Notes: generated by a model from the letters alone, not told the origin. A DNA stretch of 64,000 bases from Myxococcales bacterium (GCA_016707895.1 JADJGV010000002.1:335695-399694); one strand, 5' to 3'. Positions 36,515-45,956 are shown, counted from the stretch's first letter. Numbers and translations are program-made.

Positions 36515-37561
36515 TCAGCGCACCACGGTCAGGTGAACCCGCCCCGGCGACGACGGCGGCGGCGGCAGCGCCGGCGCGAGCGGCTGGCCGCGCCACGCGT
36601 CGAGCCGGCTGCCCTGGTGCGCGTACGCGACCGGGCAGGTGGCGGCGCACGGCTTGGGCGTGTCGAACGCCTGGCGGATGTCGTCGACGCCGTAGTCGGC
36701 CAGCGGCTTGGCGCCCAGGCCCATCTTGGGCGTGCACAGGTGCACCAGCCCGTCCTCGCACACGGTGAAGAAGCGGGCGCCGGCGCGGCACTTCCACTCG
36801 ACCTGGCCGCGGTCGAGCAGCTCGCTCTGGAAGTCCTCGCTGAAGACGCTGGTGCCGTGGCGATCGAGCGCGCGGATCTCCTCGTAGACGGCGCGCGCCT
36901 CGGCGTCGACCGGCAGCGGTCGCCCCGACGGATCGCGGGCCAGCGAGCACTTGGCGTCGAAGCCGAGCGCGTGCACCGCCTGCGCGACCGCCAGCGCCTC
37001 GGCCGGCGGCGCCGCGCCGAAGACGGTGTTCACGCGCACGCGGAAGCGCGCGTGCTCGGCGAGCAACCGCAGCTTGCCGCGCAGCGGCTTGAGCGACTTC
37101 TTGCTGACCGCGTTGGGCGTGAGGTTGTCGAGGCTGAGCTGCAGCGCGTACAGCCCGGCGTCGTTGAGCGCGTCGATCAGCGCACGCGTCAGCAGATAGC
37201 CGTTGGTGTTGAGCGCCGGCGTCATGCCGCGCGCGCGCACGTGGCGGACGATCGCGACGATGTCGGGGTGGAGCAACGTCTCGCCGCCGGTGAGCGTGAC
37301 GAACACCGTGCCCAGCTCGGCGAGGTGATCGATGCGCGCCTTCATCTCGTCGAGCGGCACCGGCGGCGACACCTTGTCGTACTCGGTGCAGTAGCCGCAC
37401 GCGAGGTTGCAGCGCCGGGTGACGACGACGTGGGCCATCAGCGGCCGATCGGTGTCGAGCGCGGCCTTGGCCAGCCCGCGCAGCACGCGGAAGTCGGCGC
37501 GCAGCTGGTGGCGGCGCTGGTGGCGGACAGGGGCGATCGCGGGGAGGGCGGCTGCGGACAT
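36515..37561 (-). CDS. radical SAM protein with C-terminal Cys-rich SPASM/twitch-like extension
   Basis: CNLACGYC = CxxxCxxC. Additional Cys cluster near the C-terminus (CRAGARFFTVCEDGLVHLC…CAATCP). Start is an internal ATG (MSAAALPAI…). Confidence 0.8.
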   Translation of the reverse strand: MSAAALPAIAPVRHQRRHQLRADFRVLRGLAKAALDTDRPLMAHVVVTRRCNLACGYCTEYDKVSPPVPLDEMKARIDHLAELGTVFVTLTGGETLLHPDIVAIVRHVRARGMTPALNTNGYLLTRALIDALNDAGLYALQLSLDNLTPNAVSKKSLKPLRGKLRLLAEHARFRVRVNTVFGAAPPAEALAVAQAVHALGFDAKCSLARDPSGRPLPVDAEARAVYEEIRALDRHGTSVFSEDFQSELLDRGQVEWKCRAGARFFTVCEDGLVHLCTPKMGLGAKPLADYGVDDIRQAFDTPKPCAATCPVAYAHQGSRLDAWRGQPLAPALPPPPSSPGRVHLTVVR

Positions 37562-37684
37562 GGCGGGCGGTATTGCGACCCCTGGGCCATCGCCCAAGCG
37601 CTCGAGATCGCTAGGCCGGGTGTCAAGGTTCGACCATTCCCTGGCAGATCAGCGCCGACGGCTGGCTGGTACGTTTCAACGGCG

Positions 37685-38152
37685 ATGCTCCGCCGCGTCT
37701 TGCCGCTCGCCTTGTTGGTCGGTTGCAGCCACCCGCGGCCGGCGCCGGCGCCAACGCCGCCGAGCCCGCAGGTCACGATCCACCTCGATCCGCTGCGCTT
37801 CAAGCCCGACGCCACGCTGACGATCGAGCTGGTGATCGGCAGCGGCTACAGCTGCAGCAAGCGCTACCCGATGCCGATGACGGAGCCCGCGCCGACGCCA
37901 TCGCCCGCGCCGTGCATGGCGCCGCCGCCCCCGTTCCACGAGCAGTACGCCGAGCGGGTGGCCGGCCGCAGCGCCATCGTGATCGCCAGCGGGCAGCTCA
38001 TGCTCGGGCGCGACTTCACCGTGATCGTCACCGGGCCCGCGGCCGAGGGTTGCGATCTGCTGCGCGGCACCGCGCGCGGCATCGCGACCGGCGGCGCGGT
38101 CGAGGTCCCGGCGCTCGAGCTGGTCGCGATCCCGCAGCCGTGCCCGGCGTAG
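37685..38152 (+). CDS. small lipoprotein (paralog of 38185..38685)
   Basis: Lipobox LLVGCS. The upstream ~2 kb of ORF 35567..38152 is antisense noise. Confidence 0.5.
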   Translation: MLRRVLPLALLVGCSHPRPAPAPTPPSPQVTIHLDPLRFKPDATLTIELVIGSGYSCSKRYPMPMTEPAPTPSPAPCMAPPPPFHEQYAERVAGRSAIVIASGQLMLGRDFTVIVTGPAAEGCDLLRGTARGIATGGAVEVPALELVAIPQPCPA

Positions 38153-38184
38153 ATCGTCGACGGCGATCGCGCGTCGGAAGTCCC

Positions 38185-38685
38185 ATGCCCCGCACGCTCG
38201 CCGCCCTCGCGCTCGCCGCCCTCGCCACCACCGCCTGCACCGAGCAGCTCGCGCCCGCCGCCCAGGCCACCACGCCGGTGCGCTTCGCGCTGTCGCTCGA
38301 CGCCCGCGCGTTCATGCCGGGCACGACCGTCGAGGTCGAGGTGTGGAACGAGGCCGCGCTGGCCGCGCGGGCGCGCAGCGGCGACTGCATGATCGGCCAC
38401 AGCGCCGCCGGCGAGGAGATCATCTGTCCGCCCGGCGTCACCTACCAGCCGCCGCCGACGCCCGAGCGGTTCACGTTCACCGTCGACGAGCTGGGCCACG
38501 GCTTCGCGATCGCCGCGCTGTCGATCGGCCGCGGCGAGGCCTACGAGATCGCGATCGGCGGTCGCGCCGCCGACGGCTGCAACCACGCCGGCGCCACCGC
38601 GCGCGGCGTCGCCGACCGCGACGAGATCGCGCTGGCCGACCTCGACGTCTTCTCGACCACGATGGCGTGTCGCACCGGTGGCTGA
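38185..38685 (+). CDS. small lipoprotein (paralog of 37685..38152)
   Basis: Lipobox LATTAC. Shared pattern …I.A..G…I.G.AA.GC…G.ARG.A. Confidence 0.5.
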   Translation: MPRTLAALALAALATTACTEQLAPAAQATTPVRFALSLDARAFMPGTTVEVEVWNEAALAARARSGDCMIGHSAAGEEIICPPGVTYQPPPTPERFTFTVDELGHGFAIAALSIGRGEAYEIAIGGRAADGCNHAGATARGVADRDEIALADLDVFSTTMACRTGG

Positions 38686-40779
38686 TCACGCCACGCGGAT
38701 GCGGGCGTCGATCGCGATCACGCCCTGGCCCGGGCCGCGGGTGACGATCGGGTTGAGGTCGAGCTCGAGCACCGCGCCCAGGTCGCCCATCAGGCGATCG
38801 ACGCGCAGGATGGCGTCGCGCAGCGCGGCGCGATCGGCCACCGGGCCGCCGCGGAAGCCGTCGAGCAGCGCCTGCGCCCGCACGCCGTCGACCAGATCGC
38901 GGGCGTCGGCGTCGGTCAGCGGGTGGACCCGGAAGCCGACGTCCTTCCACAGCTCGACCGCGACGCCGCCGATGCCGAAGCCGATCAGCGGGCCGAAGCC
39001 CGGCGTGCGGGTCGCGCCGACGAACAGCTCGACGCCGCGCGGCACCATCGGCTGCACGGTGACGCCGGCCATCTCGGCGGCGCGCCCGATCGTCGCCAGC
39101 CGCGCGTGGATGTCGGCGAAGGCCTGGCGCACGGCGGCGGCGTCGGCGACGTCGAGGATCACGCCGCCGACGTCGGTCTTGTGGGTGATCGTCGCGGAGG
39201 CGAGCTTGATCGCGACCGGGTAGCCGACCGCGTCGGCGGCGGCCGCGGCGTCGTCGGCCGAGGTGGCGAGCTGCGTGCTCGGCTGCGCGATGCCGTAGGC
39301 CGCCAGCACCGCGCGCGTGGCCTCGGGCGGCAGCCAGCCGTGGTGATCGCCGATCGCGGCGCGCGCCGCGGCCGCGTCGACGGCGAGCTCGGGCACCGCG
39401 CCGGCGCCGCGGGCCAGCCAGCGGCCGTAGCGCACCACGCGGGCCAGCGCGATCGCCGCCGCCTCGGGGAACGCGTACGACGGGAACCGGCCCTCGCGCA
39501 GCGACGACAGCGCCGCCGGCACGCCGTGCATGCCCATGAACGACGTCAGCACCGGCTTGGTCGCGCTGGCGCCGCCGCGCTGGATCGCCGCCGCCACCGC
39601 CGCGGCCTCGGTGCCGACCGGCGGCACGAACAGCACGATCACCGCGTCGACGCCGGGATCGGCGAGCAAGAGCGGCAGCGCGCGCTCGTAGGCCGCGGGC
39701 GTGGCGCTGGCGATCATGTCGACCGGGTTCTTGACCGACGCCTCGGGCGGCAGGAACTCGCGCAGCGCGGCGGTGGTCGCGGCCGACAGCTCGGGGACGA
39801 TCAGGCCGTGGCTCTCGCAGGCGTCGGCGGCCATGATGCCGGGGCCGCCGGCGTTGGTGAGCAGCGCGACGCGGTTGCCGCGCGGCACCGGCTGGTTGGC
39901 CAGCACCATCGCGACGTCGAACAGCTCCTCGATGGTGTCGGTGCGGATCACGCCGGCCTGGGTGATCAGCGCCTCGACCGCGACCTCGTTGCCGGCCAGC
40001 GACCCGGTGTGCGAGCTGGCGGCGCGCGCGCCGGCGCCGGTGCGGCCGCTCTTCACGGCGACGATCGGCTTCTCGCGCGCGACCCGCTGGCAGGTGGCGA
40101 GGAACCGGGCCGGGTTGCCGAAGCTCTCGAGGTACAAGAGCACCACCTGCACCTGCGGATCGGCGCCCCAGTACTCGATGAGGTCGTTGCCCGACACGTC
40201 GGCCTTGTTGCCGATCGACACGAACTGGTGGATGCCGATGCCCAGCTCCTTGGCGTAGTCGAGGATCGCCAGGCCGACCGCGCCCGACTGCGACGAGAAC
40301 GCGACGTTGCCGTGGGGCGGCCAGGTCGGCGCGAAGGTGGCGTCGAGGGCGATCGCGGGGTCGGCGTTGAGCAGGCCGAGGCAGTTGGGGCCGACCATCC
40401 GCATCCCGGCGGCGCGCACCTTGGCCAGCATCGCGTCCTGGACGGCGCGCCCGGCGTCGCCGGTCTCGGCGAAGCCGGCGGTGATGATCAGCACCGCCTT
40501 CACGCCGGTCGCGACGCAGTCGTCGATCACCGCCGGCACCCGCGCCGCCGGCACGACGATCACCGCGAGGTCGATGGCGTCGGGCACCGCGCGCAGATCG
40601 GGGTAGGCGCGGACGCCCTGCACCGACGTCGCGCCCGGGTTGACCGGGTAGACCGCGCCGGTGAAGCCGTTGGCGATCAGGTTATGGAAGATCTCGGCGC
40701 CGATCGTGCCGCGGGTGCGCGACGCCCCGATCACCGCGACCGTCCGGGGCTTGAGCAGCGAGTCCAGCGAGTGCGCCAT
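38686..40779 (-). CDS. acetyl-CoA synthetase (ADP-forming), fused alpha/beta domains (CoA-binding/ATP-grasp)
   Basis: N-terminal CoA-binding Rossmann fold (RTVAVIGAS…), succinyl-CoA-synthetase-like domains and a C-terminal ATP-grasp domain. ~700 aa. Confidence 0.85.
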   Translation of the reverse strand: MAHSLDSLLKPRTVAVIGASRTRGTIGAEIFHNLIANGFTGAVYPVNPGATSVQGVRAYPDLRAVPDAIDLAVIVVPAARVPAVIDDCVATGVKAVLIITAGFAETGDAGRAVQDAMLAKVRAAGMRMVGPNCLGLLNADPAIALDATFAPTWPPHGNVAFSSQSGAVGLAILDYAKELGIGIHQFVSIGNKADVSGNDLIEYWGADPQVQVVLLYLESFGNPARFLATCQRVAREKPIVAVKSGRTGAGARAASSHTGSLAGNEVAVEALITQAGVIRTDTIEELFDVAMVLANQPVPRGNRVALLTNAGGPGIMAADACESHGLIVPELSAATTAALREFLPPEASVKNPVDMIASATPAAYERALPLLLADPGVDAVIVLFVPPVGTEAAAVAAAIQRGGASATKPVLTSFMGMHGVPAALSSLREGRFPSYAFPEAAAIALARVVRYGRWLARGAGAVPELAVDAAAARAAIGDHHGWLPPEATRAVLAAYGIAQPSTQLATSADDAAAAADAVGYPVAIKLASATITHKTDVGGVILDVADAAAVRQAFADIHARLATIGRAAEMAGVTVQPMVPRGVELFVGATRTPGFGPLIGFGIGGVAVELWKDVGFRVHPLTDADARDLVDGVRAQALLDGFRGGPVADRAALRDAILRVDRLMGDLGAVLELDLNPIVTRGPGQGVIAIDARIRVA

Positions 40780-40889
40780 CGCGTGAGCTTACGCGGGGTT
40801 GCGTCGCTGCGGGGGCGCGCCGCGGCGGCGATCGGTCGCGGTCAGTGCGTCGCACGCAACCGCGGCGCGGTGCGGTCGATAGCCGCGGC

Positions 40890-42905
40890 ATGAATGCACC
40901 AAGACTCGTCGCGTTGCTCTCGGTCGGTGGCCTGCTCGTCGGATGTGGCGGAGGTCGCCCGGCGCCGCCGGCGCGGCCCGTCGCCGCCGCGAAGGTGGAC
41001 CTCAAGCGCGCCAAGGCGCCCGCCACCGCGGTCATCCTCGGTACCGGCGGCGCCGGCGATTCGACCACGCTGACGCTGCCCACCGGCTCGCAGCGGGTGA
41101 CGGTGTCGCCGCTGTTCGTGCGCGGCGCCAATGCCGACGCCGAGGGCGGGATCGGCTCGGTCGACCTGATCGTGCAGGCGGCCACCAGCGGGCAGGTGAA
41201 GGTCGGCGTGTTCGAGGACGTCGCCGGCGGCGCCGGGCCCGAGTGGCGGGCCGGCGTGTGGCTGGCGGCGTACGTCGCGGTGAGCGTGCTCGACAAGGAC
41301 CTCACCGACTTCGCGTTCGAGGCGACCTCGAGCGGTCACGTCGACGGCGCGTCGGCGTCGGCGCTGATGTCGGCGGGCCTCGTCGCGGCGATCCTCGGCT
41401 GGCAGGTCGACGCGGCCGCGACGATGACCGGGACCATCAACCCCGACGGCACCGTCGGGCCGGTCAGCGGCATCCCGCAGAAGTTCGCGGCGGCGCTGGC
41501 CGCCGGCAAGCGCCGGCTGGGCTACCCGGTCGGGCAGCGGCTCGCGATCGACGCGGCCACCGGCGCCGAGGTCGACCTGGTGGCGCTGGCGCGCGAGCGC
41601 GGCGCCGAGGCGGTCGAGATCGCCGACATCTACGGCGCGATCGAGCTGATGACCGGGCGCGCGCTGCCGCGGCCGCTGCCGCTGGCCAGCAACGCGATGG
41701 AGCTGCCCGCCGAGATCGCGGATCGCGTCGGCGCGCGGGTCGACGCCTGGGACAAGCGGGTCGACGCGCTGCACGAGGAGCTCGACGGCGGCTACGACCT
41801 CGGCACCGCGGCGCTGGGCGCCTACCTGCGCTCGACGGTCGCCCACGATCGCGCCTTCAAGCAGCGCAAGCAGGGGATGGTGGCCCCGGCGTATCACGGC
41901 ATGGTGGCGGCGTGGATCGCGGCGTCGGCCAGCCGCGACGCCGCGACCGTGCTCGGCTACGCCGTCGACGGCGACGTCGAGGGCGCGATGCGCGAGCTCG
42001 ACCGCCTGACCGCCGAGCTGGCGACGGCGACCGACGCGGTGCGCGCGGTGGGCACGCGCAAGCCGGCGACGATGGGCGACCACCTGCAGATGCTGTCGGC
42101 GTTCGACGCGGCCATCGATGGCTGGAGCTTGCAGACGTTCGCCGAGGCGCTGGTCCGCCGCACCCGGGTGCGCCTCGAGGTCCTGCGCGAGGACCCCGAC
42201 GATGACTACGCGCTCACCGCGGTGGGCCGCGACGTCGTGGCCGCGACCACCGCGATCGCCCGGGCGCGCGCGGCGGTGCTCCTGACCCAGGACGCGGCCG
42301 AGATCGAGACCGCGCCGTCGGCGGTCTACCGCTGCTCGCTGCCCGCGGTGAAGCGGCTCGCGACCTCGTTCGCCGCCGCCGCCGGCTCCAACCTGGCCTA
42401 CGTCGAGGCGCTGGGCGGCATCACCACCGACCTCGGCCGCGACCTCACCGCGGCGACCGAGCCCGACTACCTGGTCGCGGCGGTCGGCAGCCGCGTCGGC
42501 GACGCCACCGGCGTGCCGGCGACGCTCAAGGCCGCGTGGGGCGAGGACTCGGTCGGCTGGCGCCTGTTCACGCTGGCCGCCAGCCAGCAGTCGTACTTCC
42601 GCAGCTCGCTGCTCGCGTCGCGCTGGCACTCGCTGGGCGTGCGCGTGGGGCTCGACGGCCGCGCCTACGCCATCGGCAACGAGCGCGCCCTGCTCAACAT
42701 GCTCGAGTTCGCCGAGCAGCGCGCGCGCGAGCACGCCCACGCCGCGCAGGTCGCCACCGGCGAGGTGCCGCTGCAGACCCAGCTCCACTACCAGACCGCC
42801 CGCGGCCTCCGCGAAGGCGACGCGGCCGACAAGCTCGCCGCGCTCGCCGCGTACTGGGCCGCCTCGGCGTACGCCCAGTCGGCGCTGATGCTCGCGCGCA
42901 ACTGA
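40890..42905 (+). CDS. Lon-like S16 serine peptidase domain lipoprotein
   Basis: Lipobox LLVGCGGG. Lon proteolytic domain (DGASASALMSAGLVAAILG…TGTINPDGTVGPVSGIPQKFAAA). Long helical C-terminal region. Confidence 0.7.
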   Translation: MNAPRLVALLSVGGLLVGCGGGRPAPPARPVAAAKVDLKRAKAPATAVILGTGGAGDSTTLTLPTGSQRVTVSPLFVRGANADAEGGIGSVDLIVQAATSGQVKVGVFEDVAGGAGPEWRAGVWLAAYVAVSVLDKDLTDFAFEATSSGHVDGASASALMSAGLVAAILGWQVDAAATMTGTINPDGTVGPVSGIPQKFAAALAAGKRRLGYPVGQRLAIDAATGAEVDLVALARERGAEAVEIADIYGAIELMTGRALPRPLPLASNAMELPAEIADRVGARVDAWDKRVDALHEELDGGYDLGTAALGAYLRSTVAHDRAFKQRKQGMVAPAYHGMVAAWIAASASRDAATVLGYAVDGDVEGAMRELDRLTAELATATDAVRAVGTRKPATMGDHLQMLSAFDAAIDGWSLQTFAEALVRRTRVRLEVLREDPDDDYALTAVGRDVVAATTAIARARAAVLLTQDAAEIETAPSAVYRCSLPAVKRLATSFAAAAGSNLAYVEALGGITTDLGRDLTAATEPDYLVAAVGSRVGDATGVPATLKAAWGEDSVGWRLFTLAASQQSYFRSSLLASRWHSLGVRVGLDGRAYAIGNERALLNMLEFAEQRAREHAHAAQVATGEVPLQTQLHYQTARGLREGDAADKLAALAAYWAASAYAQSALMLARN

Positions 42906-42925
42906 TCGCGGTCAGCTGATCGCGG

Positions 42926-44230
42926 TCAGCGGAAGATCACCGGCACCGCGGTCAGCTGGCGGTCGCGCGAGTCGCGTGGGGCGTCGACGCCCAGCGCGCC
43001 GCCGTCGTGCTCGCCCCAGCAGCGCACCGAGCGATCGGCGAGCAGCGCGCAGGCGTGGTGCTGGCCGGTCGCCACCGCGATCGCGCCGGTGGTGCCGGGG
43101 ACGACGCGCGGCCGCCGGAACGACCAGTCGGTGCCGTAGAACCACTGCCCCCAGCACGTGACGTCGCCGGTGGGCGTCAGCGCGCAGCTGCGGCCGTGGC
43201 CGGCGCTCAGCGCGACGCCGCGGACGCCGCCGCCGGCCCAGACCCACCAGCGGCGCTCGGCGAACACCTGCTCGTGGGGGCGCGGCGGCGCGGCCGGTTC
43301 CTTGGGGCAGCAACGATCGGGCCGCGGCGGATCGCGCGGGTCACGCGGCGGCGGCGCGTCGGTCCAGCGGCACACCACGCCACGCGGGTCATACGGATCG
43401 CATCGCGCGTCATCGGGGACGCGCTGATCGCCGAGCTGTCCGAACTCGTCGGCGCCGCCGCACCAGACCAGCGCGTCGGCGTCGGCGAAGCAGACGTGGC
43501 GCCAGCCGATGCCGATCGCGATCGCCTTGGCCAGCGGCTTCGATACCGTCGCGCGCAGGATCGGCCCCGGCGCGTTGCCGAACAGCCCCGTGGTGTTGAA
43601 GCCCCAGCAGCGCGGGCCACCGTCGGCGACGAACGCGCACGCGACGTCGTCGCCGGCGACCAGCCGGGTCGCGCCGCGCAGGCCGACCACGCGCCCGGGC
43701 CGGGCCGCCTTGCGCGGATCGCCCCCATGTCCGACCGCGCCCGGATGTCCCCAGCACCACACCGCGCCGTCGCGATCGCGCACGCAGGTCTGCGCGCCGC
43801 CCGCCACCACCTCGACCACGCCGCTCACGCCGGCCACCGTCGCGATCGTGTCGCGCGACTCCAGCGTGCCATCCCCGAGCTGCCCGTCGCGGTTGTCGCC
43901 CCAGCACGCCACCGTGCCGTCGCCGCGGGCCACGCACACGTGCCGCGAGCCCACCGCCAGCGACACCACGCCCGTCAGCCCGACGCGCGTCGCCACCGCC
44001 GCCGCCGGCACCGCCGCCAGCCCCACCGCGCCCCAGCACCACACCTCCCCCGACTCCGCCAGCGCGCAGCTCCGCCGATCCCCCACCCCGATCGCCCGGA
44101 TCGCTGGCCCCGCCGCCGCCGCATCCGCCACCACCCCCGCATCCACCGCAACCGCCCGCTCCGCATCCGCCGGGGCCGCCCGCCCCGACGCCCCGCACGC
44201 CGCCAGCGTCAACAGCATCCATCGTCCCAT
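42926..44230 (-). CDS. RCC1-repeat (beta-propeller) lipoprotein
   Basis: Lipobox LTLAACG. Repeated …CWG.N..GQLG.G… blades (about 7). Confidence 0.75.
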   Translation of the reverse strand: MGRWMLLTLAACGASGRAAPADAERAVAVDAGVVADAAAAGPAIRAIGVGDRRSCALAESGEVWCWGAVGLAAVPAAAVATRVGLTGVVSLAVGSRHVCVARGDGTVACWGDNRDGQLGDGTLESRDTIATVAGVSGVVEVVAGGAQTCVRDRDGAVWCWGHPGAVGHGGDPRKAARPGRVVGLRGATRLVAGDDVACAFVADGGPRCWGFNTTGLFGNAPGPILRATVSKPLAKAIAIGIGWRHVCFADADALVWCGGADEFGQLGDQRVPDDARCDPYDPRGVVCRWTDAPPPRDPRDPPRPDRCCPKEPAAPPRPHEQVFAERRWWVWAGGGVRGVALSAGHGRSCALTPTGDVTCWGQWFYGTDWSFRRPRVVPGTTGAIAVATGQHHACALLADRSVRCWGEHDGGALGVDAPRDSRDRQLTAVPVIFR

Positions 44231-44251
44231 CCGCCGAAGAACGCCCGACCC

Positions 44252-44528
44252 GGGGACAGGATCTACCCCTCCATCACTTCGAAATCACTCCAGATAATCA
44301 GTCCACCGCGTCGCAAAAGGGGACAGGATCCTGGGTCGCAAGCATACAGAATCAATTGTGATTTTTCGGCCAAGCGCGGCGAAATGCCACCGACTCCGGC
44401 GGCGACGACAACGAGAAAAGCGCAAACGATTTCGACGGCTTACGACCCAGGGAAGTGTCCCTTCTCGCGACACACGACGCGATTTTTCAGCTATGATTTC
44501 ATAGCGATGGAGGGGTAGATCCTGTCCC
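44252..44528. mobile_element. MITE-like non-autonomous element (277 bp, 24-bp terminal inverted repeats GGGGACAGGATCTACCCCTCCATC)
   Basis: Left TIR at 44252..44275. Right TIR (reverse complement, 23/24) at 44506..44528. Internal 12-nt partial TIR copy at ~44318. AT-richer interior carrying small hairpins. No convincing ORF inside. Confidence 0.5.
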
Positions 44529-44546
44529 TCGGGCGCGTGCGATGGC

Positions 44547-45077
44547 TCACCGCGGCGGCGCGAAGCACGGCTCGAGGTACGGCTGCATCGCCGCCAGCAC
44601 CGCGTCGATCGCGACCGGCTGCCAGCCGTCGGCGAGGATCGCCACCGCGACGTCGCCGACGGTCCGCTGCGCCGTCCGGTGATCGCTGCCCAGCTCGACG
44701 GTCGCGAACGACTGCCAGCGATCCGACGTCGCGGGCCGGTCGGCGGGCCGCACGGCGAAGACGTGGATCGGCGCGACGTCCCAGGTGGGCGGGTAGGCGT
44801 GGGCGCTGACCTCCTCGCGATCGGGGCGCCGCTCGTGCTGCACGGCCATCGTGGCCAGCACCGGCTCGACCCGGCTGGCGGCCTCGCGCGCGGCCAGGAG
44901 CGCGTCGCGGCAGCGCGCGGCCCACGCGGTCGGCGGCAGGCCAGCGTCGACGGGCGTCGCGGCCAGGGCGCGCGGCGGCGCGATCGGCGCGCGGTCGCCG
45001 CGGTCGCTGCGATCGCACGCGACCACCAGCCCCAGCGCGAGCAGCGTCGTGCGCACGCGGCGAGGATACGCCGCCAT
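44547..45077 (-). CDS. hypothetical lipoprotein
   Basis: Lipobox LGLVVACD. Position upstream of cdsA. Weak. Confidence 0.45.
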   Translation of the reverse strand: MAAYPRRVRTTLLALGLVVACDRSDRGDRAPIAPPRALAATPVDAGLPPTAWAARCRDALLAAREAASRVEPVLATMAVQHERRPDREEVSAHAYPPTWDVAPIHVFAVRPADRPATSDRWQSFATVELGSDHRTAQRTVGDVAVAILADGWQPVAIDAVLAAMQPYLEPCFAPPR

Positions 45078-45080
45078 CGC

Positions 45081-45956
<876 letters not shown>

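Follow-up and report, generated by a model that had tools for sequence, protein, structure and literature searches.

Background

The closest described counterparts of the locus reported here are the units that Di Nocera et al. (2013; PMC3733652) named TIRtrons, in which RAYT-like genes come with long terminal inverted repeats (TIRs) and not with REP hairpins, and whose enzymes they named TIRYT. Many TIRtron TIRs share the consensus GGGGWSAS, and some form moderately abundant dispersed families whose members are single, dimeric or clustered (PMC3733652). Quentin et al. (2018; PMC6006769) suggested that TIRYTs probably correspond to subclass 2.1 of the TnpA_Y1 enzymes, the subclass in which 291 of the 292 Bertels RAYT group 1 sequences were placed, and an HTH-like C-terminal domain was reported for the TIRYTs placed there. 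Y1 HUH enzymes of the IS200/IS605 and TnpA_REP types cut and rejoin single-stranded DNA without duplicating the target (PMC6006769). REPINs, the repeat doublets of RAYT systems, are ~100 bp long, with a palindrome of ~14 bp in each half (bioRxiv 10.1101/2021.07.10.451892), and a chromosomally fixed transposase together with co-evolving repeats is the pattern of RAYT systems (PMC5581495; bioRxiv 10.1101/2021.07.10.451892). Six names of myxobacterial genera or groups that we looked for are absent from the main text of PMC3733652. In the literature we searched, no paper linked a RAYT/REPIN system or a MITE to myxobacteria, and no transposition or cleavage activity was stated as demonstrated for any TIRYT. 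Among other small mobile DNAs, Correia/NEMIS, RUP, ERIC and Nezha are tied to DDE-type IS families, usually with target-site duplications, and IS200/IS605 elements, which lack terminal inverted repeats, carry subterminal hairpins.

We analyzed a 64,000-nt stretch of a Myxococcales genome (the window; positions are counted from its first letter), in which an earlier note, made from the sequence alone, had described a MITE-like element ahead of an RCC1-repeat gene. We conclude, with a probability of roughly 85%, that the element is a TIR-dimer, a REPIN-like non-autonomous hairpin repeat of a RAYT-like Y1 (HUH) unit, probably mobilized in trans. It belongs to a known class of small mobile DNA and is not a new kind of element.

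Structure of the element in the window

The 24-mer GGGGACAGGATCTACCCCTCCATC occupies 44252-44275, and its reverse complement was found at 44506-44529 with one mismatch, in agreement with the earlier claim of 24-bp terminal inverted repeats matching at 23 of 24 positions. Zero inverted pairs of this kind were seen in 100 dinucleotide-preserving shuffles of the 64-kb window. A repeat search showed the 24-mers to be part of an outer inverted repeat of 42 nt that is 86% complementary (44246-44287 versus 44494-44535). The earlier estimate of the repeat, 24 to ~32 bp, was too short, as profile matches run over both sides of the element, and each arm is therefore ~140 nt, not 24, with two boxes of the GGGGACAG type, one outer and one inner. 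The region between cdsA/hyp and RCC1 is, as a whole, one long hairpin made by these two inverted arms. The features of the locus are as follows:

42926..44230, minus strand: RCC1-repeat protein gene, lipoprotein-like N-terminus (Pfam RCC1_2 3.6e-34, WD40_RLD 2.6e-43); outside the element
44241..44384, plus strand: left arm, full extent (nhmmer match 44244-44382, E=8e-34, to a profile made from transposase flanks and related arms)
44246..44287, plus strand: outer 42-nt inverted repeat, left copy, containing the 24-mer at 44252-44275
44252..44263, plus strand: left outer box GGGGACAGGATC, fitting the TIRYT consensus GGGGWSAS
44319..44330, plus strand: left-arm inner box GGGGACAGGATC, a direct repeat of the outer box, 67 nt inward
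44385..44397, no strand: apex between the arms
44398..44541, minus strand: right arm, full extent, inverted (nhmmer match 44537-44402, E=1.6e-33)
44450..44461, minus strand: right-arm inner box, variant GGGACACTTCCC (minus-strand reading), aligned with the inner boxes in the transposase flanks of L093, L108 and L014
44494..44535, minus strand: outer 42-nt inverted repeat, right copy, containing the 24-mer at 44506-44529 with one mismatch
44518..44529, minus strand: right outer box AGGGACAGGATC, one mismatch
44547..45077, minus strand: hyp, 176-aa hypothetical protein (stop codon 44547-44549); outside the element
45081-45956, minus strand: cdsA
Sequence around the outer end of the element: GGGGACAGGATCTACCCCTCC

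All neighboring genes lie on the minus strand, in the order cdsA, hyp, element, RCC1, and the element fills the intergenic space from 11 nt past the hyp stop codon to 15 nt ahead of the RCC1 start codon. The 310 nt from 44236 to 44545 fold as a single hairpin, with a minimum free energy of -173 kcal/mol on the minus strand and -154 kcal/mol on the plus strand (z-scores of -11.3 and -10.2, respectively), which means that the interior of the element is palindromic too. The least conserved part is the central ~60 nt, at about 44380-44440. On the plus strand, the right-arm inner box reads GGGAAGTGTCCC (~44450-44461), and the region around it gave an exact 21-mer match at 44443-44463.

Several other observations of the earlier note held. 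What it took for a partial internal TIR copy is the GGGGACAGGATC sequence at 44319-44330, a second conserved box with a counterpart in the right arm; the small hairpins are present as described; and the interior is AT-richer, with a GC content of 53-59% against 75-83% in the flanks and 73% in the genome. Neither a credible ORF nor a target-site duplication was found, again as the note had it. Within the 64-kb window, searches with the 24-mer and with the arm profile recovered no second copy of the element. A terminator-like stem, TCGCGACACACGACGCGA followed by TTTTTCAGCT, was observed inside the right arm on the plus strand (44465-44491), antisense to the neighboring genes.

A dispersed repeat family

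With the terminal 20-mer GGGACAGGATCTACCCCTCC as an exact query against one genome per species, we obtained 34 genome stretches, of which 22 came from a single MAG, JANNBP01 ('Deltaproteobacteria'), and others from Haliangiales/Myxococcales MAGs, to which most genome matches belong. The same kind of scan with the terminal 18-mer returned 101 metagenome stretches, and zero matches to the terminal motif were found in viral contigs. The resulting copy number of tens per genome is a lower bound, given that only exact matches were counted. The further copies and the parental unit that the earlier note had proposed to look for were thus both found, the latter as a coding unit with the same termini, and its own ground for giving up the reading, that no copies occur anywhere, does not apply since other copies exist.

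At a tolerance of up to three mismatches, the genome loci together with the window gave at least 29 inverted pairs, ranging from 110 to 330 bp, with 160 bp as the commonest size. All of the inverted pairs examined fold as long hairpins. When copies were aligned, their ends, GGGGACAGGATCTACCCC, were invariant and their interior was variable. The outer box is the best-conserved part of the whole family, its motif being present in 135 loci (34 genome and 101 metagenome), and GGGACAGGATC, which corresponds to window positions 44253-44263, is invariant among eight aligned long-arm copies. Copies are mostly intergenic (33 of 36, by a GC3-based ORF filter), and by gene context 14 are tandem, 7 convergent, and 3 divergent. 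No consistent direct repeat of the target-site duplication type was seen in the flanks of the 29 pairs compared; the GATC that adjoins many JANNBP01 copies belongs to their palindromic ends.

Two subfamilies can be described. With the long-arm profile, we found about ten more non-orthologous copies of the window's subfamily (L014, L074, L080, L096, L109, L113, and others), and two of the copies, L074 and L084, are from the same metagenome as a copy of the window's locus. These long-arm copies are ~65% identical column-wise, with the boxes alone invariant, and are therefore old. The JANNBP01 subfamily has a conserved subterminal box, ACGTAAAATCG, and a conserved asymmetry between its arms, CTCC versus CCGC. 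Besides inverted pairs, the family includes singles, namely the solo arms in L015 and L025, and tandem clusters of two or three whole hairpins (L036 3937-4120, L040 4950-5310, and L097 1674-2110). In these clusters, one arm was observed to have the usual end and the other the variant GGGGACAGGATCCGGGGTC.

The AT-rich box ACGTAAAATCG lies ~55 nt from each element end (L003, L005, L009, L034). In some copies it forms a loop that is closed by a local, covarying stem (e.g., GAGCCGA-ACGTAAAA-TCGGCTC), and in other copies of the JANNBP01 subfamily it pairs with its counterpart in the opposite arm; it could be a protein-binding site. Just outside many JANNBP01 copies we also observed 'stutter' arrays, which consist of two to four tandem units of 12-29 nt, each unit comprising the last ~10 nt of the element (e.g., GATCGGGGACAG) and ~6-15 nt of adjacent sequence. 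They lie in the outer flanks of L016 (6720-6790 and 6950-7020), L017, L020, L021, L022, L028, L031, L032, and L034. Replication slippage at the foot of the hairpin and repeated abortive cleavage and rejoining are both possibilities for their origin.

Exact matches to the 20-mer also turned up in contigs binned to other groups. A complete 141-bp inverted pair is present in a Sphingopyxis-binned contig (L018, 2039-2179), and contigs binned as Planctomycetales and Tepidisphaeraceae have single matches (L008, 1084-1103; L030, 4283-4302). Mis-binning, horizontal spread or chance could account for these. Two candidates for larger elements were rejected. The distant 'partner' of a 2.5-kb candidate in L015 was a chance match within a gene, and a 1-kb block common to L010 and L020 is an orthologous host gene (DUF3025) and not an IS.

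Transposase units with the same ends

At four metagenomic loci, inverted termini were found 820-940 bp apart with an ORF inside, and these ORFs begin M(A/P)R.AR.V.P..PHHV.LRGNNRRRLF. A tblastn search placed the gene in six loci (L059, L093, L108, L123, L126, and L133, of which L093 is the same as L108), and all six have inverted arms on both sides. These transposase-unit loci are related metagenomic contigs that lie outside the window; the 64-kb window itself holds no transposase gene.

The enclosed ORFs encode 216-232 aa and match Pfam Y1_Tnp (PF01797; E = 4e-12, 2e-9, and 5e-5). Their best NCBIfam model is that of the REP-associated tyrosine transposase (REP_Tyr_transpos), at 34-62 bits, which is under the 80-bit equivalog cut-off; the IS200 model reached 16 bits against 46-62 bits for the REP-associated model. 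Among PDB structures, E. coli TnpA_REP (4ER8) was the sole match, and the alignment brings the HUH and Y..NP motifs together. Eight homologues show no variation in the HUH motif (N-H-x-H) or in Y-x-D-x-N (N67, H68, H70, Y128, D130, and N132). The N of the Y-motif is followed by P in two of these sequences (L059 and L133) and by A or G in the remaining six. The C-terminal extension is conserved as well (WST..HA..TPS.WY, RLERP). For the proteins of L059 and L133 and two database homologues, P0004 and P0010, Pfam identified Y1_Tnp alone, and no C-terminal HTH (Bac_DnaA_C, HTH_23, HTH_28) was found at E up to 10. The HTH-like C-terminal domain of subclass 2.1 TIRYTs thus goes undetected here by Pfam, and we therefore file these proteins as TIRYT / class 2 Y1 and assert no subclass.

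In an alignment with the DNA on the 5' and 3' sides of the transposase gene (L093, L108, and L123), the arms in the window match column by column. The modules follow in the order of outer box, GA(A/T)ATC box, GCGTCGC, inner box (GGGGACAGGATCC or GGGACACTTCCC), GAAATC, and TTTTC, and between the right arm and the 3' flank in L093/L108 the identity is 75.6% over 82 nt (blastn). Given this module-for-module alignment, the element in the window amounts to both flanks of a transposase unit minus the gene.

The repeat family, its architecture, and its linkage to a Y1 transposase are direct observations on these loci. From them we infer mobilization in trans and a single-stranded DNA mechanism. The element most likely originated from a TIRtron-type unit that lost its transposase ORF, or from the pairing of the two flanks of such a unit, and a single chromosomal TIRYT probably spread it in trans to many intergenic sites. 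By analogy with IS200/IS605 TnpA and E. coli TnpA_REP, the TIRYT would cut and rejoin single-stranded DNA at the GGGGACAGGATC ends and produce no target-site duplication. The missing duplication would then be explained, because Y1 enzymes of the IS200/IS605 type leave none.

Co-occurrence and co-divergence of enzyme and repeat

A database search yielded 231 homologues of the transposase at E ≤ 1e-10. Those with a named source come from Myxococcales, Kofleriaceae, Deltaproteobacteria, and Gemmatimonadaceae MAGs, and one carries the source label 'REP-associated tyrosine transposase'. The closest homologue, P0004, is encoded in GCA_020050275.1 (L148) and in JGI 3300009540 (L144), and both assemblies have a near-identical hyp-element locus (L141 and L142, respectively), with L141 extending into the RCC1 gene. 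A link between enzyme and element within one organism is suggested by this co-occurrence in two metagenome-derived assemblies and by the similarity of the arms, on which it rests.

Across six contigs, P0004 consistently has an ATP_bind_3 (PP-loop) gene on one side and a Tricorn/S9 peptidase gene on the other. The same two neighbor genes flank P0010, which is 61% identical to P0004 and encoded on a 1.26-Mb Myxococcales contig. The positions of the gene are as follows:

L143-L148, 2501-3199: Y1 transposase gene
L149, 2501-3187: Y1 transposase gene

In L149, two tandem arms were observed in the 3' flank of the transposase gene.

The flanking boxes of the second genome, which encodes P0010, are changed to GGGGACAGGCTCC(T)ACCCTCC. 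The repeat ends co-diverge with the transposase, and the transposase locus is syntenic. This is the pattern that has been used to argue that RAYTs are long-term vertical residents and not ordinary IS. A broader reading is that the family represents an undescribed REPIN-like population in Myxococcota with long two-box arms and no REP palindrome, kept up by a TIRYT (RAYT group 1 / subclass 2.1 type) that is inherited vertically at a syntenic locus; we put this forward tentatively and would give it clearly less than even odds. RAYT group 1 / subclass 2.1 is reported as weakly associated with repeats. If such a population does exist, the enzyme would have to recognize either the GGGGACAGGATC boxes themselves or the duplex-like foot of a hairpin of 160-290 nt, which would be a mode of DNA recognition other than that of E. 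coli TnpA_REP. The GGGGACAGGATC ends and their cognate proteins would be usable substrates for TIRYT biochemistry.

Comparison with described systems

The family resembles TIRtrons in that a RAYT-like Y1 HUH gene is bounded by long inverted repeats and not by REP hairpins. The TIR in the window starts with GGGGACAG at 44252, and GGGGACAG occurs again at 44319, which fits the consensus GGGGWSAS (PMC3733652, PMC6006769). The TIR family is also dispersed, with 22 loci in JANNBP01 and with singles, dimers, and clusters across loci, and the Y-motif of the enzymes agrees with the signature of TnpA_Y1 class 2, Y---N(P). It differs from the described TIRtrons in its Haliangiales-type myxobacterial host, in its long arms (~75-140 nt), and, for the window's long-arm subfamily, in having two GGGGACAG-type boxes per arm. 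A TIRYT/TIRtron repeat family is hereby documented in Haliangiales/Kofleriaceae-type myxobacteria, where it was undescribed in the literature searched.

The likeness to REPIN-RAYT systems (Bertels & Rainey 2011, PMC3116915; bioRxiv 10.1101/2021.07.10.451892) lies in the non-autonomous extragenic hairpin doublets, in a repeat that flanks the Y1 gene, and in the synteny of that gene in diverged genomes, with the repeat co-diverging with the enzyme. Unlike REPINs, these elements measure 110-330 bp (the one in the window, 277-300 bp), number tens per genome, as a lower bound, where REPIN-RAYT systems have hundreds, and have a conserved end without a significant palindrome. As its own hairpin, the terminal 35-37 nt folded no better than shuffles on four of five strands (z of -0.1 to +0.6), and the right terminus in the window was marginally better (z of -1.3, with 24 of 200 shuffles as good). 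The terminal motif alone thus gives no significant hairpin, and the classical REP recognition structure is absent. GTAG, which usually forms the foot of a REP palindrome, lies here inside the motif (GGGGTAGATCC) and not at the foot of a stem. With an end that fits GGGGWSAS and does not fold by itself, the element groups with TIRtrons and lacks the REP palindrome of REPINs.

IS200/IS605 elements share with this family the Y1 HUH catalytic core (PF01797) and the lack of a target-site duplication, and the family differs from them in that its ends are long inverted repeats.

Alternative explanations and local effects

The alternative that survives best, although we regard it as improbable, is that the hairpin is a cis-regulatory RNA or DNA structure specific to the RCC1 locus, such as a leader hairpin, an attenuator or a promoter module. 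The element is directly upstream of the RCC1 start and is kept beside RCC1 in MAG-81, where it is 93.3% identical within a 91.9%-identical colinear block, and the sense-strand RNA of the window copy folds 19 kcal/mol more stably than the antisense. This bias does not extend to the family, as among copies between co-oriented genes the sense strand folded more stably in 5-6 cases, against 7 for the antisense strand. The family adjoins unrelated genes at dozens of loci and in every orientation. Copy-specific compensatory evolution is essentially absent, given that the identity between arms is 0.70 within a copy, barely above the 0.67 between copies. In Rfam 15, the element region of the window had just one match, at chance level (Xoo1, E=0.56; 22 bits, where the gathering score is 70), and five related loci gave zero matches.

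The earlier note had also suggested that the element could supply a promoter for RCC1. We found no support for this idea: a scan of the element region for sigma-70-like promoters returned no site, and the layout between co-oriented genes is that of an intra-operon hairpin. The promoter/terminator scan identified a single terminator-like site, which lies antisense to the genes. If transcribed, the element would form a very stable RNA hairpin of ~290 nt, situated between the hyp stop codon and the RCC1 start codon. As for REPs and MITEs, the expected effect would be on transcript processing, stabilization or partial termination, and not the supply of a promoter; by this analogy, any effect on hyp or RCC1 expression is most likely the generic one that REP/MITE-type hairpins have within operons. 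A side effect on RCC1 expression is compatible with the mobile-element explanation too. Read as a mobile element, the odd 300-bp low-GC palindrome in a 73%-GC genome would be ordinary mobile-DNA debris, and the tempting regulatory reading falls away.

The second alternative, which we consider slightly less credible again and very unlikely, is the classical MITE, an internally deleted IS moved by a DDE transposase, with the 24-bp terminal inverted repeats as its binding sites. The "MITE-like" label of the earlier note stands as a description, for the element is non-coding, multi-copy, of MITE size, and has inverted repeats. Its size, inverted termini, lack of an ORF, multi-copy intergenic spread, and AT-richer interior would all agree with a deleted IS, and, like Correia/NEMIS, RUP, ERIC, and Nezha (background in PMC3733652), it falls within 70-300 bp, carries TIRs, is gene-adjacent, and would form a stable hairpin if transcribed. 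The label fails where it implies a DDE-type IS parent, as the parent is a RAYT-like Y1 HUH unit. The coding units that were found with these termini all specify a Y1 HUH transposase and none a DDE enzyme, so that the ends belong to a tyrosine HUH transposase unit; no target-site duplication was seen across the 29 copies examined; and the arms are ~140 nt with internal boxes, not short TIRs.

An inverton, in which a site-specific recombinase would flip a promoter to phase-vary a surface lipoprotein, can practically be set aside: inverted repeats do bound a ~230-bp AT-richer segment upstream of a putative surface lipoprotein gene, but the interior is palindromic, so that inversion would alter little, a Pfam scan of the nine large ORFs at 38.7-48.9 kb showed no recombinase, no promoter was found, and the repeats are a dispersed family tied to a Y1 transposase. 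A retron, considered for a long hairpin in a myxobacterium, was rejected, as no reverse transcriptase was present among the neighboring ORFs scanned and the element is dispersed.

Local synteny and contig breaks

The gene arrangement of the window is backed by three independent assemblies, and the host organism is represented in GCA_020050275.1, GCA_964269055.1 and JGI 3300009540. The order cdsA-hyp-element-RCC1 recurs in L140 and L141, and the shorter contig L142 carries cdsA-hyp and the first ~150 nt of the element. The earlier note had proposed a search for empty sites in related strains. The element is missing in a relative, L139 (948-964), whose hyp orthologue is 69% identical and where 15 nt separate the hyp stop from the next gene, but the junction there is not strictly comparable, and the search through orthologues of the 176-aa hyp protein yielded no strict empty site. 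The next gene in L139 encodes a lipoprotein-like signal peptide, on a contig too short to identify it as the RCC1 orthologue.

In MAG-81 (L033; JAEUJY01, contig JAEUJY010000077.1), an orthologous copy of the element, 93.3% identical, lies beside the orthologous RCC1 gene, and homology with the window is unbroken over 7.6 kb at 91.9% identity (36954-44536). This colinearity runs up to the outer edge of the right arm and breaks off precisely there (44536/44537 in the window, 7600/7601 in L033). Past the breakpoint, MAG-81 has an ORF resembling a formylglycine-generating enzyme (FGE-sulfatase) in place of hyp/cdsA. Either the element is a rearrangement breakpoint or the MAG-81 contig is chimeric at this point. 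On the tentative REPIN-like reading, two observations, the stutter arrays and the loss of synteny exactly where the window copy ends, hint that DNA is still being cut and rejoined at the ends and that this shapes genome structure.

The element likely causes contig breaks in these MAGs, and it may be a rearrangement breakpoint. Finally, the contigs with an 88%-identical hyp orthologue were all observed to end 31 nt past its stop codon, inside a repeat of the GATCAGCGCGC type (L136 3544-3574, L137 2179-2209, and L138 1674-1704, from different sequencing runs). That three contigs end at one point in the repeat suggests an assembly break at a repeat copy in the equivalent site.
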